Below, piece by piece: positions 21,001-27,000 of a DNA stretch of 51,299 nt; position 1 is the first letter of the stretch; every line of letters begins with the position of its first letter. The position numbers were made by a program. The DNA comes from a virus (lineage: Duplodnaviria; Heunggongvirae; Uroviricota; Caudoviricetes), in IMG/VR virus record IMGVR_UViG_641522650_000003; one strand, 5' to 3'.

Positions 21001-24000
21001 CCGGTATTTTTTCCAGGAAGATAGCATCGAAACCTCCTCATCAGTTGCCATTTCAAAATTAATAGCATCCTGCAGAATTGTTATGTTATCAGTCGCTTCC
21101 TGGATTAATCTTGTCTTTTTCTCTTCCGCCTCCCGGATCCGGAAGAGTTTTTCTGCTTCCGTATCCTTCACCCAGGCTGTGCCGTTCCACTTCTGAAACT
21201 CCCCTTCCGGGGATAACCAAGTGACATTTCCCGGTAATGAGCCGAGTTCAGAAATAAATAACGCGTCGCCGGAAGCCACGTCATAAACCGTTTTACCCCG
21301 ATGATCTTCAACGAGATGCCACGATGCCTCATCACTGTTGAAAACAGCCACAAAGCCAGCAGGAATATCTGGTGGTGCAATATCGGTACTGTTTGCTGGC
21401 AGACCTGTATGAGGCGGAATATATGCGTCACCTTCACCAATAAATTCATTAGTTCCGGCCAGCAGATTATAAATTTTTATGGTCCGTGCTTGTTCACTCA
21501 TTCTGAATGCCATTATGCAAGCCTCACAATATAGTTAAATGCGATGTTTTTGACGGTGTTTTCCGCGTTACCCGCAGCGTTAACGGTGATGGTGTGTCCA
21601 TGTGAACCAATCGCAACGGAGTGCGTATGCGCACCAATACCTACAGTATGTGCATGTGCGCCAGAACTTGCTGCAGTACCAGACAGCGAGTGGGTATGAG
21701 CACCTGCTGACTGTGTCTGAATACGTTGATAATACGATCTACGGGAAGAAGTCCCCGGGCTTACTTGATACTGTGAATTCTGGACATAAGTGAACCCACC
21801 GCCATCATAAAATGCTAACGCAGAACCGCCGCCTCTTGGCCAACGAATACCATTACCATGAGTATGAACACCGGCAGACCCCGTAGAGCCACTCAGACTG
21901 TGCGTATGCGCCCCGGTGTTATTCGTGGATTTAGTGCCGTAATCAAACGACGATGTGGTTTTCGTCCCCAAATCCGTACTGGATGCGCTGGCGCTGTGGG
22001 TGTGCGATTTAATGCCGTCCTGTTCCTGAGACAATACGGCCCGACCACTGGCAGGTTTGCCCTTAATCGTCCAGCCACGCATATCAGGGATCACGCCTGA
22101 CGGATAAGCGGCTGCAAGTTTCGGGTAAGCAGATTTGTCAAAAGTCTGCCCCTGCATCAGGGCATAACCAGACGGAACGGTATCTGATGGCCACGGGATT
22201 GGTGCGCCGACTGGGTAGCTTTCTGGTGGAAGATTTTTCGAGGTATAAACTTCTGCCCAGCCTTCCTCAAAACCATAACCGTCTCTTGAAGAACGGTAGA
22301 ACAGACCACCATTTCTGTAATGCGCCTTCATCTGCAGGGTCCGGCAACTTCCGACTCCGGTATAGAAGTTAACCAGAATATAGCTGTCGCCAGAGCGGGT
22401 GACATTGTAAGCGCCTGATTCGGCATTCCAGGGAACGGCTCCATCCGAATCCGCATAAGCCCCCGTCGAACGTCGGGCAAATGCACCAATATTTTCCGGC
22501 GTGAGGTTAATATCCGCCGAGCCATCAAACTTAACACCGTTAATTTTTGGGGCTGCCGCAAGTTTCGTCGCGGTATCGGCGTTCCCCTTCAGTGCCCCGG
22601 TGATCCCATCAGTAACAAACAACGGACCTGAAATAGTCCCTCCAGTCGTTGGCAGCGCTCCAATATCTGATGGTGTAGGTTTCTGATGTGAGCTATACAT
22701 CGTATAAACAACACCATAGGTAACGCTGGAAGGCTTACTCGCTGAATATGTTGGCGAGGTATAAACAGAAACTGACGCATTTGCAGTACAATCCCAATGG
22801 ATATTTACACTCGTCGCATAATTGGGTGATGCTGCCAACTTACTGATTTAGTGTATGATGGTGTTTTTGAGGTGCTCCAGTGGCTTCTGTTTCTATCAGC
22901 TGTCCCTCCTGTTCAGCTACTGACGGGGTGGTGCGTAACGGCAAAAGCACTGCCGGACATCAGCGCTATCTCTGCTCTCACTGCCGTAAAACATGGCAAC
23001 TGCAGTTCACTTACACCGCTTCTCAACCCGGTACGCACCAGAAAATTATTGATATGGCCATGAATGGCGTTGGATGCCGGGCAACTGCACGCATTATGGG
23101 CGTTAGCCTCAACACGATTTTACGTCACTTAAAAAACTCAGGCCGCAGTCGGTAACCTCGCGCATACAGCCGGGCAGTGACGTCATCGTCTGCGCGGAAA
23201 TGGACGAACAGTGGGGATACGTCGGGGCTAAATCGCGCCAGCGCTGGCTGTTTTACGCGTATGACAGGCTCCGGAAGACGGTTGTTGCGCACGTATTCGG
23301 TGAACGCACTATGGCGACGCAGGGGCGTCTTATGAGCTTGCTGTCACCCTTTGACGTGGTGATATGGATGACGGATGGCTGGCCACTGTATGAATCCCGC
23401 CTGAAGGGAAAGCTGCACGTAATCAGCAAGCGATATACGCAGCGAATTGAGCGGCATAACCTGAATCTGAGGCAGCACCTGGCACGGCTGGGACGGAAGT
23501 CGCTGTCGTTCTCAAAATCGGTGGAGCTGCATGACAAAGTCATCGGGCATTATCTGAACATAAAACACTATCAATAAGTTGGAGTCATTACCGCATAATT
23601 GCCAATCTCAACGTAAATATCATATGTATCGCCGGATGTGTTGATCCAGGCGAAATTCGTTAATCCGACGGCTGTACGCTTCCACAAAGCCCCGGTAATT
23701 CCTTTGGGGTTTCCATTGCCTGCTCGTAGAACCAGTTCTGAAATGCCTGCCTGATGTGGGGAACCGACGTTGTAACCAGCGCCACCAATCAATGCGATGT
23801 AAACGATGGAACTCGCTTGTGGCATGGTAACCGTAGCCAGTTTGAACCACCCAGCCCCGCCAGAGAAAGACATCGTTACTGAATTTAAAGTACCAATATC
23901 TTTCGGCGTTAATGTTATATCCGCAGTCAATGCTTTTCCGTTAACTTTTCGGTTAGATGGCACCCTGCTATTCGCATTGTCATTGGCTGCTTTAACTGCT

Positions 24001-27000
24001 TTTGGCGTTGCGGCCAGCGATTCACTGGTGCTATCAACAGCACTGCTAAGTTTCACAACACCTTTAGTTGTAAGGCTTGCGTCTTCCATCGCAACTGCAC
24101 CGGCAATCTCTTCAGCACGATCAGCAGCAGCTTCCGCACGGGTCGCAGCGGATTCAGCAGTAGTTTTGCTCTGAGATGCTGCCGTCGCACTGCCTGCCGC
24201 CTCTGTTGCCTTCGTGGATGCCGTCGTGGCGCTGCTCTTCGCTGCTGACGCTTGTCTGGTCGCCTCATCTTTTGAAGCAGACGCCGATGATGCCGATGAC
24301 GCCGCCGAACTGGCGGACGATGCGGCAGCCGTTTTTGAGGATTCTGCGCTGGTTTCCGACGCTTTCGCGTTCGTTTCGGATGTCTTCGCTGCGGAAGCAG
24401 ACCTCGCTGCTGCGCTGGCCTGTTCAGTGGCTTCGCCAGCCTTCGTTGTGGCTGTTGAAGCAGACGATGCGGAGCTTTCTGCCGATTTTCCGGCGGCGGT
24501 GGCACTGGCTGAGGCCTGCCCGGCACTTGTTGACGCTGCACTGGCAGACGACGCAGCCGCTGTTTTTGAGCCTGCCGCAGCTGAGGCACTCTGTTCCGCT
24601 GCCGTTTCAGAAGACCTGGCGTTTGTCTCAGACGTTTTTGCCGCCTTCGCAGAATTTGCTGCCGCCGTTGCCGAGGAAGCTGCGCTGCTGGCGCTCGAGG
24701 CTGCGTTCGTTTCTGATGATTTTGCCGCCTCTTTTGAAGCCGACGCATCCCGTGCTGAAGTGGCTGCTTCTGACGCTTTCGTGGTCGCGGTGGATGCAGA
24801 AGTGGCTGCTGATTGTTGTGACGCTGCCGCATTCGTTTCTGACGTTTTCGCCGCACCGGCACTGGTAGCCGCCGCGCTTTTTGAGGACTCTGCAGCGGCA
24901 GCACTTTTTAATGCTTCAGTGGCCTTTGTTGATGCCGTTCCTGCGCTGGAAGACGCTGACTGAGCCGACGACGCGGCCTGTCCGGCTGACGTGCTGGCGG
25001 CACGTGCTGAGGCTGCAGCATCGGTTGCATGAGTTGCCGCCTCGCTGGCTGATGCACTGGCATCGCTGGCTGATTTTTTCGCGGCTGCCGTATTCTGTGC
25101 AACCGCGGAGGCGTTACGTGACACCTCTTCCACCATCTGCTCAAAGCGGCGCAGTGCCTCCGGTCGGACATCATCCTCCGTCATGGCACCGAGAAAATCA
25201 TTCAGCGTACCTGGTCTGGAACCTTCATAGACGGTAATGGTCCCGGCATGTGAAGGCGGAAAACCTTCAACCAGCAGGGTGACGCTGTACTGACCATGCT
25301 CAACATCCATGCTGTAACGTCCGGCTTCATCCGGATTTTCAGAGGCCACCGTGTTCACCACCACCGTGCTGCTGGTTCGTCTGGCCTTCAGCACAATGGT
25401 GCAGTTCTGTACTGGTTTTCCTGTGCCATCTTTAAGCACGCCAGAAATTTTTACTGTCATACTTTTCCACCAATAAAAAAAGCCCGCAGCAGTGACGCCA
25501 CGGGCTTCAGGACAGTGTAACTTTACGTTTCCTCAAACGCAGTTCACCCCATAAAGTGGATGAACCTGCGTATCATAACAATATTTACAGAAGATAAATC
25601 GGCGTCTGTTGTCAGAAACGGTATCCGATACCAACAATAAATGCATCCGTTCGCCAGTCGCCACTACCGGAACCTTCATAAGCAAGGTCAACGGCCACGG
25701 ATTCGGTCGGGTTAAACTGCACGCCAGCCCCCCACGCCAGAGAGGTATTGCTGTGGCGACCGTCATCACTTCCGGTCAGCACGTCGTGCGTTTTCCCCTT
25801 GTTGTCAGTTACGCGGAGATAATCCCCGGAGAAAGTCGACACACGGCTGTAAGCCACACCCGCCATCGCATACGCGCTGAACCATTCATTCACGCGTACA
25901 GACGGCCCCGCCATCACGCTGAACCAGCGGTTACGCACGGAATCTTCATGCCAGCGGGTATCGCTGTAGCGCGTTTTTTGCTCATCCTCAGCATTGGCAT
26001 AACTGAAGGACGTAATCAGCCCCAGCGCGTCCGTAAACTCATAACGGTATTTCACGTTAATCCCGTTCAGATCATCACTACCGGGAACGTTCGTCGAGGC
26101 ATGGAGATACCCCGCGCTCAGCGTGGACTGATGTTCTGCTGCACTCGCTGGCGTAGCAGCGGCGACCTGCCAGACTACTGCGGACAAAATAACAGCACAT
26201 AATTTACGCATAATTACCTCTCGCTTTTCTGCAATAAAAAAGGCGCCATTTCTGGCGCCCGTATCTGGGTTATAAAATTCAGCTAATCGTGATGCCTGCA
26301 GTGGCTTTCTTCATCACCACAACCAGCAAATCGCTGATACTTGCTGTGGGATACCAGTTATTTACCAGCCATGCTGACACCGAAAACTCCAGTGTCATGT
26401 GACCGTGACCGGCAGGCATATCAATAACACCACTGTAAATCAGCGTATTATCCAGCGCGGTACGGTTATAAATTTCAGCACCGTTTTTCCGCACTATCAG
26501 ACGGCATGAGGAGTAAATATCAGTATGCTCTTTCTCATGTTTAGCGCCGCTGAATGCCACCGCCGGAATAACAATCTGCCGGTCAAACGGCTGATCGTCA
26601 TAAACCCTGACGGTAATGGTTCCTGATGGCCACCGCTCTGGTGCACGGGAGTCCCGGGGGAAAGCTTTGCCCACTGTTTTAACGAGATCGCCTTCAATCT
26701 GGTTCGCGGACAATTTTCCCAGAACCCGACAGTTCTCGTTAATAGTGACGTTGTTGAGCGTCCCGGAGTTCGCATTCACGTTACCGCTGATATCGGCATT
26801 TTTCGCCGTCAGCCGCCCGTCCGGTGTCAGGGAAAATGCCGGAGGATTACCGCCGCTGGTAATGGTGGGAGCCGTCAGATATTTCAGGAACACTTCATTC
26901 ATAAATATCTGATCGCCCTGACCAACAAACATCGGCTTTGTGTTGCCATTCGCAGGATTAATCATCGCAATCCTGTCTGCCGCCAGCAGCACCTGACTCT

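Follow-up and report, generated by a model that had tools for sequence, protein, structure and literature searches.

Laboratory lambda has no side tail fibres, and Ur-lambda has them. In lambda PaPa the side tail fibre gene (stf) is inactivated by a single lesion, a 1-bp frameshift, with the J-dependent tail otherwise encoded. In Ur-lambda the Stf protein forms trimeric tail fibres with OmpC as the surface receptor and speeds adsorption through it, the lambda side fibre being an accessory adsorption device and not the essential receptor binder (PMC12617516). The chromosomes of Shigella contain 229-348 IS copies, of which IS1 is the most numerous, and these elements are a major cause of gene loss (Hawkey et al., 2020, PMC7373316). 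The same study centres on the loss of metabolic and virulence-related genes, and the word 'prophage' is absent from its main text. In the locus described here stf would likewise be inactivated by a single lesion, with the J-dependent tail otherwise encoded; the lesion is an IS insertion instead of the 1-bp frameshift of PaPa, and the phage itself is, unlike lambda, a non-viable remnant. The Shigella IS1 pseudogenes described by Hawkey et al. (2020) share with it the element, the organism group, the 9-bp target-site duplication and the interruption of a coding sequence; there is no difference in kind, and the target in the present case is a gene of a defective prophage.

The window, i.e., the whole stretch of DNA analysed (51,299 nt), is identical to Shigella boydii CDC 3083-94 (CP001063) over the 16.6 kb compared. 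Our reading of the locus is a single simple transposition of IS1 into the intact stf of a lambda-like prophage, as neutral decay, and we assign it a probability of about 95%. The features of the locus are as follows:

20941..21513, minus strand: tfa, intact tail fibre assembly chaperone gene, 190 aa (PF02413 Caudo_TAP, E 2.5e-37)
21513-25460, minus strand: stf, split by IS1, starting with the ATG at 25460
21513..22824, minus strand: distal part of stf, end of codon 623 to codon 1056 and stop (PF07484, PF03335, PDB 2XGF)
22816..22824, plus strand: left copy of the target-site duplication, GCATAATTG, adjoining IS1
22825..23592, plus strand: complete IS1, 768 bp, in opposite orientation to stf (terminal inverted repeats, identity to other IS1 copies)
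22880..23155, plus strand: insA, 91 aa (ORF list)
23129..23137, plus strand: A6C slippery motif TTAAAAAAC (frameshift emulated)
23200..23577, plus strand: insB' frame, mechanical ORF from the first ATG (ORF list)
23571..25460, minus strand: truncated stf ORF now in the genome, 629 aa (ORF list and junction translation)
23593..23601, plus strand: right copy of the target-site duplication, GCATAATTG, adjoining IS1
23593..25460, minus strand: proximal part of stf, codons 1-623 (PF08400, PDB 9e7m, Ala+Ser+Thr composition)
23806..24963, both strands: zone of spurious alternative-frame and antisense ORFs in the shaft (ORF list)
25612-26211: lom (PF06316)
26279-29965: J (phrog_31)

The gene had been described preliminarily as a side tail fibre gene with limits at 21513-25460, and both points hold. 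It begins with the ATG at 25460, and at the 3' end its stop overlaps the start of tfa in the motif TAATG (21511-21515). The identity is supported by the Pfam domains, by matches to PDB structures and by the order J - lom - stf - tfa, in which stf lies downstream of J and lom and directly upstream of the overlapping tfa. In the restored protein PF08400 (phage_tail_N) spans residues 1-134 over the full model (E 5.9e-70), and residues 1-94 match PDB 9e7m, 'Tail fiber protein' (E 4e-47). In the distal part PF07484 (Collar) was found at residues 826-873, PF03335 was matched as well, and residues 821-1056 match PDB 2XGF, the tip of T4 gp37 (E 2.5e-81). His-x-His motifs, which in 2XGF bind metal ions along the needle, occur at residues 894, 926, 940, 996, 1010, 1019 and 1028, and all seven align with a His-x-His of that structure. 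Full-length Stf homologues annotated 'side tail fiber protein' are also carried by free-living lambdoid phages. Judging from the sequence, the restored protein is thus a lambdoid Stf, and the domain roles of Ur-lambda Stf (PMC12617516) agree with this identity. With 1056 aa it is longer than its Ur-lambda counterpart, whose domain map reaches residue 525 before the receptor-binding domain (PMC12617516), because the Ala/Ser/Thr-rich shaft is longer. Over its last 228 residues the protein aligns with the T4 tip from end to end (E 3.4e-78; 148 of 208 aligned residues, or 71%, identical), whereas the rest of it is lambdoid and not T4-like. The central stretch of this alignment is divergent and 20 residues longer in the present Stf. 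The corresponding stretch of T4 forms the distal receptor-contacting head; the present Stf may differ from T4 in receptor specificity.

Perfect repeats of GCATAATTG abut both ends of IS1, as expected from the clean 9-bp duplication noticed earlier, and these two copies are the only ones on either strand of the whole window; the chance of nine bases repeating across an element is approximately 4^-9 = 4e-6. The preliminary description was right that IS1 splits stf and needs one refinement, as the break is not at the boundary between shaft and tip. The insertion is in codon 623, in the middle region, approximately 150 residues past the Ala/Ser/Thr-rich region and approximately 270 before the first His-x-His (residue 894). 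The proximal part, which includes the right copy of the duplication, therefore comprises the N-terminal tail-anchoring domain, the shaft and the first portion of the middle region; the distal part holds the remainder of that region, followed by the collar domain and the gp37-like His-x-His receptor-binding tip. IS1 prefers AT-rich targets, and the target in stf fits this preference, the GC content being 36-42% within 10-50 bp on each side of the insertion site compared with 54% for stf.

When IS1 and one copy of the repeat were excised in silico, an uninterrupted ORF of 1056 aa resulted, close to the approximately 1060 aa guessed beforehand. In the proposed comparison with related intact genes, the restored gene is colinear with, and of the same length as, stf of E. 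coli FDAARGOS_1248 (WP_135113557.1), to which it aligns gaplessly over 3171 nt with 95.6% nucleotide and 95.9% amino acid identity. Out of the 138 mismatches, 71 fall within nt 1200-1500, in the shaft. The target site is empty in FDAARGOS_1248, with a single CAATTATGC and identical 30 nt on each side, and the match there spans 3614 bp, approximately 777 bp below the 4390-bp span of the query. Intact stf genes of E. coli prophages (WP_135113557.1; O104:H4 prophages) likewise encode 1056 aa in the order lom - stf - tfa; they are uninterrupted, whereas stf is split by IS1 here. In the best full-length E. coli matches stf is either uninterrupted or IS1 is at another position: in tfa in EA13, downstream of tfaQ in LT2-3, and in PK5074 at the junction of a truncated stf fused to nfrA, approximately 96 bp from the present site. 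The same stf::IS1 junction was found in none of 5,426 complete E. coli genomes. Scanning the GTDB species representatives for exact matches to the left junction also gave 0 hits, which is uninformative because Shigella species are not kept there as separate representatives.

The element itself is bounded by GGTGATGCTGCCAACTTACTGAT and GGTAATGACTCCAACTTATTGAT, imperfect inverted repeats matching at 18 of 23 positions, and is identical at 767 of 768 positions to the three other IS1 copies of the window. It has a private substitution in insB' (A for T at 23321, Leu to Gln). When a -1 frameshift was emulated at TTAAAAAAC, insA was joined to insB' in a stop-free InsAB' of 232 aa, and with its 91-aa InsA, A6C motif and InsAB' the element looks functional. 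The annotations of matching elements in RefSeq E. coli genomes place them in the IS1A/IS1B family, and the equivalent coding sequences are labelled 'IS1-like element IS1A family transposase, programmed frameshift'. Copy 3 of the window is also flanked by a 9-bp duplication, ACAGGAGGG.

The locus would have arisen as follows. The IS1 transposase would have made a staggered 9-bp cut at GCATAATTG, an AT-rich spot in codon 623 of 1056, and repair of the cut would have duplicated the 9 bp. From then on stf would have ended six codons into IS1, and the resulting 629-aa fragment would retain the tail-anchoring domain and the shaft and lose the collar domain and the gp37-like tip. The present sequence has an ORF of this kind, consisting of 623 Stf residues and six residues (VMTPTY) from the IS1 end followed by TGA. 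The insertion would have taken place in an ancestor common to several sequenced strains. Four further NCBI assemblies contain this junction, and the insertion is therefore inherited, not private. In GCA_900457245.1 both junctions are present and excision also yields a 1056-aa ORF; in three draft assemblies the right side of the junction is present and the contigs end in the IS1. The strains are near-identical, with 3-4 differences over gap-free comparisons of 3.8-6.5 kb, and the common junction could be used to mark the lineage of the S. boydii strains carrying it.

The prophage is a decayed lambda-like remnant that cannot form particles. The portal ORF covers the C-terminal half only, the N-terminal half and everything upstream being missing in the window, and E. 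coli EC28 has the same truncated portal, recorded there as a pseudogene. Beyond it are IS600, iha, IS2 and a further IS600; IS2 and IS600 belong, like IS1, to the IS elements expanded in Shigella. The 51-kb window contains neither a large terminase gene nor early genes, and the candidate terminase gene at 45221-47311 proved to be iha. In principle, the missing parts could sit elsewhere in the chromosome through an IS-mediated inversion, the examined sequence being the 51-kb window. Truncation of stf would abolish the receptor-binding function of the fibre, and IS1 presumably has a polar effect on tfa. As the prophage is a remnant, the disruption of stf is probably phenotypically silent.

An IS1 copy between two gene pieces may also mark a place where homologous recombination between IS1 copies (inversion, deletion or exchange between prophages) brought the pieces together. 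Such junctions do exist, as seen in PK5074, where IS1 joins truncated stf to nfrA, and two of the four IS1 copies of the window (5078-5845 and 14527-15294) lack a target-site duplication, so that IS1-mediated rearrangements occur nearby, though not at the stf copy. A recombination junction would lack matching 9-bp repeats on its two sides, and excision from it would not give an ungapped full-length stf with flanks identical to those of the empty site; moreover, the sequences on both sides of IS1 match one E. coli stf (that of H29) at 99.0% in a single colinear place. We consider recombination extremely improbable, since it is ruled out at this copy by the perfect repeats and by the colinearity of the restored stf, and the simple insertion originally proposed is what the restored frame and the colinear intact gene support. 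Misplacement of a repeated element in the finished genome has an even smaller, indeed negligible, probability. IS1, being highly repetitive in Shigella, is a classic cause of misassembly, but no assembler would generate a target duplication, which is a biochemical signature, and the junction was independently assembled in four other projects, one of which covers both sides and three the right side; the artefact was rejected on these grounds.

It is also very unlikely that the insertion was adaptive, the loss of Stf or its separated fragments being selected in this Shigella lineage, in one version with the C-terminal tip and Tfa made from an outward-reading IS1 promoter and acting on OmpC or LPS. 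The insertion is retained in at least five assemblies, tfa and the distal part of stf are still open, and IS1 in or near stf-tfa recurs in EA13, PK5074 and LT2-3. Against this, common descent alone predicts sharing among near-identical strains, and neutral decay predicts recurrent IS hits in cryptic prophages. The promoter and terminator scan gave no support to outward IS1 transcription into distal stf: no minus-strand promoter-like site was found in the IS1 end facing it, and promoter-like sites overall were no commoner than in shuffled sequences. Furthermore, the 441-aa distal ORF would have to be initiated at a TTG within the inverted repeat of IS1, and a tip without its N-terminal anchor cannot join a virion, which this prophage cannot make in any case. 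We hold it equally far-fetched that distal stf and tfa yield a free receptor-binding trimer for the cell, or that, in cryptic prophages, IS1 prefers stf-tfa as a target and is selected there. If true, a free trimer expressed from an IS1-borne or hybrid promoter may mask OmpC or LPS against superinfecting phages. Given an event in a common ancestor and a prophage unable to form particles, the insertion is best read as neutral IS decay, not as adaptive. The event is of an ordinary, known kind, the IS-driven gene decay typical of Shigella.

The shaft comprises approximately 360 aa (roughly residues 110-470), and Ala, Ser and Thr make up 72-80% of residues 151-450. It was considered as a regular DNA tandem repeat and this was rejected: Tandem Repeats Finder gave only short weak arrays with a period of 9-21 and 2-3 copies, and the shaft is compositionally biased low-complexity sequence instead. 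As the preliminary description had it, long ORFs are found in its other frames on both strands (283 aa on the minus strand; 230, 249 and 122 aa on the plus strand), and between 23950 and 25050 four of the six frames have 0-7 stops. The four alternative ORFs have no significant Pfam match.

The locus is a textbook case of an IS-split pseudogene and illustrates how gene callers mishandle such loci; beyond annotation its importance is slight. Looking up the 629-aa truncated product as an exact protein gave no record, and this ORF is absent from the gene calls on record for the chromosome, where the locus was located by way of tfa and the smaller called pieces. Recorded instead are a 172-aa stf fragment, the 441-aa distal piece (mechanical ORF at 21513-22838) starting inside IS1, and the 249-aa ORF antisense to the shaft.

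The side tail fibre gene (stf; 21513-25460, minus strand) had been described from the sequence as disrupted by an IS1 element flanked by a 9-bp direct repeat, and the flanks of the element bear this out. The features concerned are as follows.

Features of the window around stf
5078-5845: IS1 copy 1 (767/768 identical to copy 4)
14527-15294: IS1 copy 2 (767/768)
19039-19806: IS1 copy 3, inverted (767/768)
~19820-20068, +: dinI homologue
20385-20930, +: hexapeptide-repeat, acetyltransferase-like gene (181 aa; phrog_2154, function unknown)
20941-21513: intact tail fibre assembly gene tfa (PF02413)
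21513-22838, -: distal stf ORF (441 aa)
22825-23592: IS1 copy 4, oriented opposite to stf, exactly 768 bp
22880-23155: insA of copy 4 (InsA, 91 aa)
23571-25460, -: truncated stf ORF (ATG at 25460, TGA at 23571-23573; 629 codons)
25612-26211: lom
26279-29965: J
41286-42059: portal ORF
45221-47311: iha (adhesin/siderophore receptor gene)

IS1 copy 4 starts with GGTGATGCTGCCAACTTACTGAT at 22825 and finishes with ...AAGTTGGAGTCATTACC at 23592, and its terminal inverted repeats are imperfect, with 18 of 23 positions matching. The slippery motif TTAAAAAAC is located at 23129, and emulation of the -1 frameshift at this motif yields an InsAB' of 232 aa without a stop. Taken together, the length, the inverted repeats, InsA, the slippery motif and InsAB' identify a complete IS1; matching elements in E. 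coli genomes are labeled in RefSeq as IS1A/IS1B family with programmed frameshift. Both 9-bp flanks (22816-22824 and 23593-23601) read GCATAATTG, a 9-mer occurring only these two times when both strands of the whole window are searched, and the probability of such identical flanks by chance is approximately 4e-6. The stf gene has been hit by a single transposition of IS1, which left a 9-bp duplication from the staggered cut.

The excision check proposed beforehand in the preliminary description was performed. Deletion of IS1 and one repeat copy gives a single open frame of 1056 codons, while frame-shifting deletions at the same place run into a stop after 625-651 codons. An uninterrupted gene from E. 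coli FDAARGOS_1248 (WP_135113557.1, annotated as "prophage tail fiber N-terminal domain-containing protein") served as the reference, in line with the proposed comparison to related prophages. The restored and the reference genes are colinear, each 3171 nt long, and align without gaps at 95.6% nucleotide and 95.9% amino acid identity. The E. coli gene has one CAATTATGC at the unoccupied target site, with 30 nt on either side identical to restored stf, and the match spans 3614 bp in E. coli vs. 4390 bp in the query, being approximately 777 bp shorter. A rearrangement junction at this site was considered and is ruled out, as excision restores the gap-free, full-length gene; the event is thus a simple insertion, as originally claimed. 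Restored stf nt 1200-1500 (window ~23961-24260), a part of the shaft holding 71 of the 138 mismatches to the reference, suggests a mosaic or recombinant segment.

The duplicated 9 bp begin with the last base of codon 620 and end with the second base of codon 623, which places IS1 within codon 623. Stf is truncated after residue 623, where the product continues with VMTPTY and then a stop, and the anchoring and shaft part is physically separated from the collar and tip part. The Ala, Ser and Thr share of restored Stf is 72-80% at residues 151-450 and at most 44% beyond residue 450. Given this profile and the first His-x-His motif at residue 894, the element separates the shaft from the His-rich tip and is located in a middle region; the order proposed earlier was therefore right, but the site is inside this region rather than at a boundary. 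The GC percentage near the insertion site is 36-42% (10-50 bp on each side) vs. 54% for the gene. IS1 has an established preference for AT-rich targets, with which the site is consistent. The 441-aa distal ORF, whose TTG start falls in the inverted repeat of IS1, is a mechanical artefact.

The domains of the restored protein support its identity as a side tail fibre. The prophage tail fibre N-terminal domain PF08400 covers residues 1-134 (E 5.9e-70), a phage tail fibre repeat is present, and the phage tail collar domain is found at residues 826-873. Among known structures, residues 1-94 match the "Tail fiber protein" 9e7m (E 4e-47), residues 731-826 the Mu tail fibre protein S (8ju3) and residues 821-1056 the phage T4 gp37 tip (2XGF; E 2.5e-81). 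Over its C-terminal 228 residues, the protein aligns end to end with the gp37 tip (148 of 208 aligned residues identical), and all seven His-x-His motifs (residues 894, 926, 940, 996, 1010, 1019 and 1028) are kept. A stretch in the centre of the alignment has diverged and has 20 more residues in Stf. The gene is downstream of J and lom, and its stop overlaps the tfa start as TAATG. Full-length homologues annotated as side tail fibre occur in free-living lambdoid phages, e.g., mEp332, PhiR34_1, Turner and ev099. A strong terminator-like hairpin (25479-25508, -; 13 pairs, then a T-run) is situated between the lom gene and the start codon of stf; if this predicted hairpin works, stf-tfa transcription would need its own promoter or read-through.

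The shaft does give rise to long spurious ORFs on both strands, as noted earlier: those within 23806-24963 encode 283 aa (-) and 230, 249 and 122 aa (+), and four of the six reading frames across 23950-25050 contain just 0-7 stops. None of the four alternative-frame products had a significant Pfam match. A regular DNA repeat was rejected as the cause, since Tandem Repeats Finder returned only short, weak arrays; the ORFs are instead caused by biased codon composition (GCN/TCN/ACN). The recorded gene calls of CP001063.1 include an antisense 249-aa ORF in the Ala/Ser/Thr shaft (24214-24963, +; no Pfam match), a 172-aa internal fragment of proximal stf (23571-24089, -) and the 441-aa distal piece (21513-22838, -), and the 629-aa truncated ORF is absent among them. 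The locus is mis-annotated in that gene-call collection.

Three stretches of CP001063.1, the chromosome of Shigella boydii CDC 3083-94 (PMC2974192), are exact substrings of the window, together comprising 16.6 kb (12941-29513). The stf::IS1 junction was found in none of the complete E. coli genomes of the collection, and its right-hand side was found in four further NCBI assemblies. Both junctions are present in GCA_900457245.1 on a 689-kb contig, and excision there also gives a 1056-aa ORF, with two amino acid differences; in GCA_001714965.1, GCA_001712525.1 and GCA_003336935.1 the contigs end inside the IS1. For three of the four loci, base-by-base comparison showed only 3-4 differences from the window over the 3.8-6.5 kb covered (GCA_003336935.1, offset by an upstream length difference, was checked for the junction only). 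The insertion has thus been inherited within a lineage. The sole difference of copy 4 from the other three window copies is A instead of T at 23321 (IS1 position 497), changing Leu to Gln in InsB. All three assemblies compared have T, which makes the A either a private change that arose later in CDC 3083-94 or an error of sequencing.

The prophage itself is a structural-gene remnant of approximately 23 kb. In gene order leftwards from tfa, its lambda-like genes are J, I, K, L, tape measure, major head protein and head protease, and the portal ORF matches portal profiles over their C-terminal half only. E. coli EC28 has the same truncated portal, annotated as a pseudogene missing its N-terminus, and the same following DNA. 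As the junction is common to EC28 and others, the truncation seems old and shared with E. coli. Within 41286-43262, the truncated portal is followed by DNA that is colinear with a gene for a "hypothetical protein" and with a portion of a "terminase small subunit" gene, and in EC28 and others the same junction abuts a second, P4- or PICI-like element that carries capsid, head-decoration, SSB and primase genes of its own. Farther on are IS600, iha (99.5% identical to E. coli iha), IS2 and another IS600; this region (43263-51299) is IS-bracketed island DNA lying directly against the remnant. On the other side of tfa are the hexapeptide-repeat transferase gene, dinI, IS1 copy 3 and two-component-system genes, the last being read as chromosomal. 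The hexapeptide-repeat gene and the dinI homologue, which follow tfa but are encoded on the other strand, resemble cargo genes of a prophage, both apparently intact. Large terminase, lysis, replication, immunity and integrase genes were not found within the window, so even with an intact stf, this locus by itself could not have yielded a virion displaying the fibre.

In Ur-lambda, a cryo-EM study ascribes tail attachment to the N-terminal domain of Stf, the shaft to a long coiled-coil region and binding of the receptor OmpC to a distal domain resembling gp37 (PMC12617516). With the anchor carrying attachment and the tip receptor binding (PMC12617516), the interrupted fibre would be non-functional. 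The disruption is confirmed, and the interpretation as a simple insertion that inactivates the fibre is supported with two qualifications: Stf serves as an accessory fibre, and the prophage is already defective. Laboratory lambda has no side fibres owing to a stf frameshift, yet is infectious (PMC12617516). The translational coupling of stf to tfa would also be lost. IS1 insertions are polar on transcription, as would be expected here. The event was probably selectively neutral because the prophage is dead. Shigella chromosomes carry 229-348 IS copies, with IS1 the commonest and a leading cause of gene loss (PMC7373316), and the stf insertion is one more such case. Events of this kind are already known, and the genome has been public since 2008.

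Of IS1 copies 1-3, only copy 3, at the prophage/chromosome border adjoining dinI, has a 9-bp target duplication (ACAGGAGGG). The flanks of copies 1 and 2 are unrelated, which suggests IS1-mediated deletion or recombination. Independent IS1 events are also seen in the stf neighbourhood of E. coli prophages: in PK5074 an IS1-truncated stf is fused to nfrA, in EA13 tfa carries IS1 inside, and in LT2-3 IS1 is located just past tfaQ.
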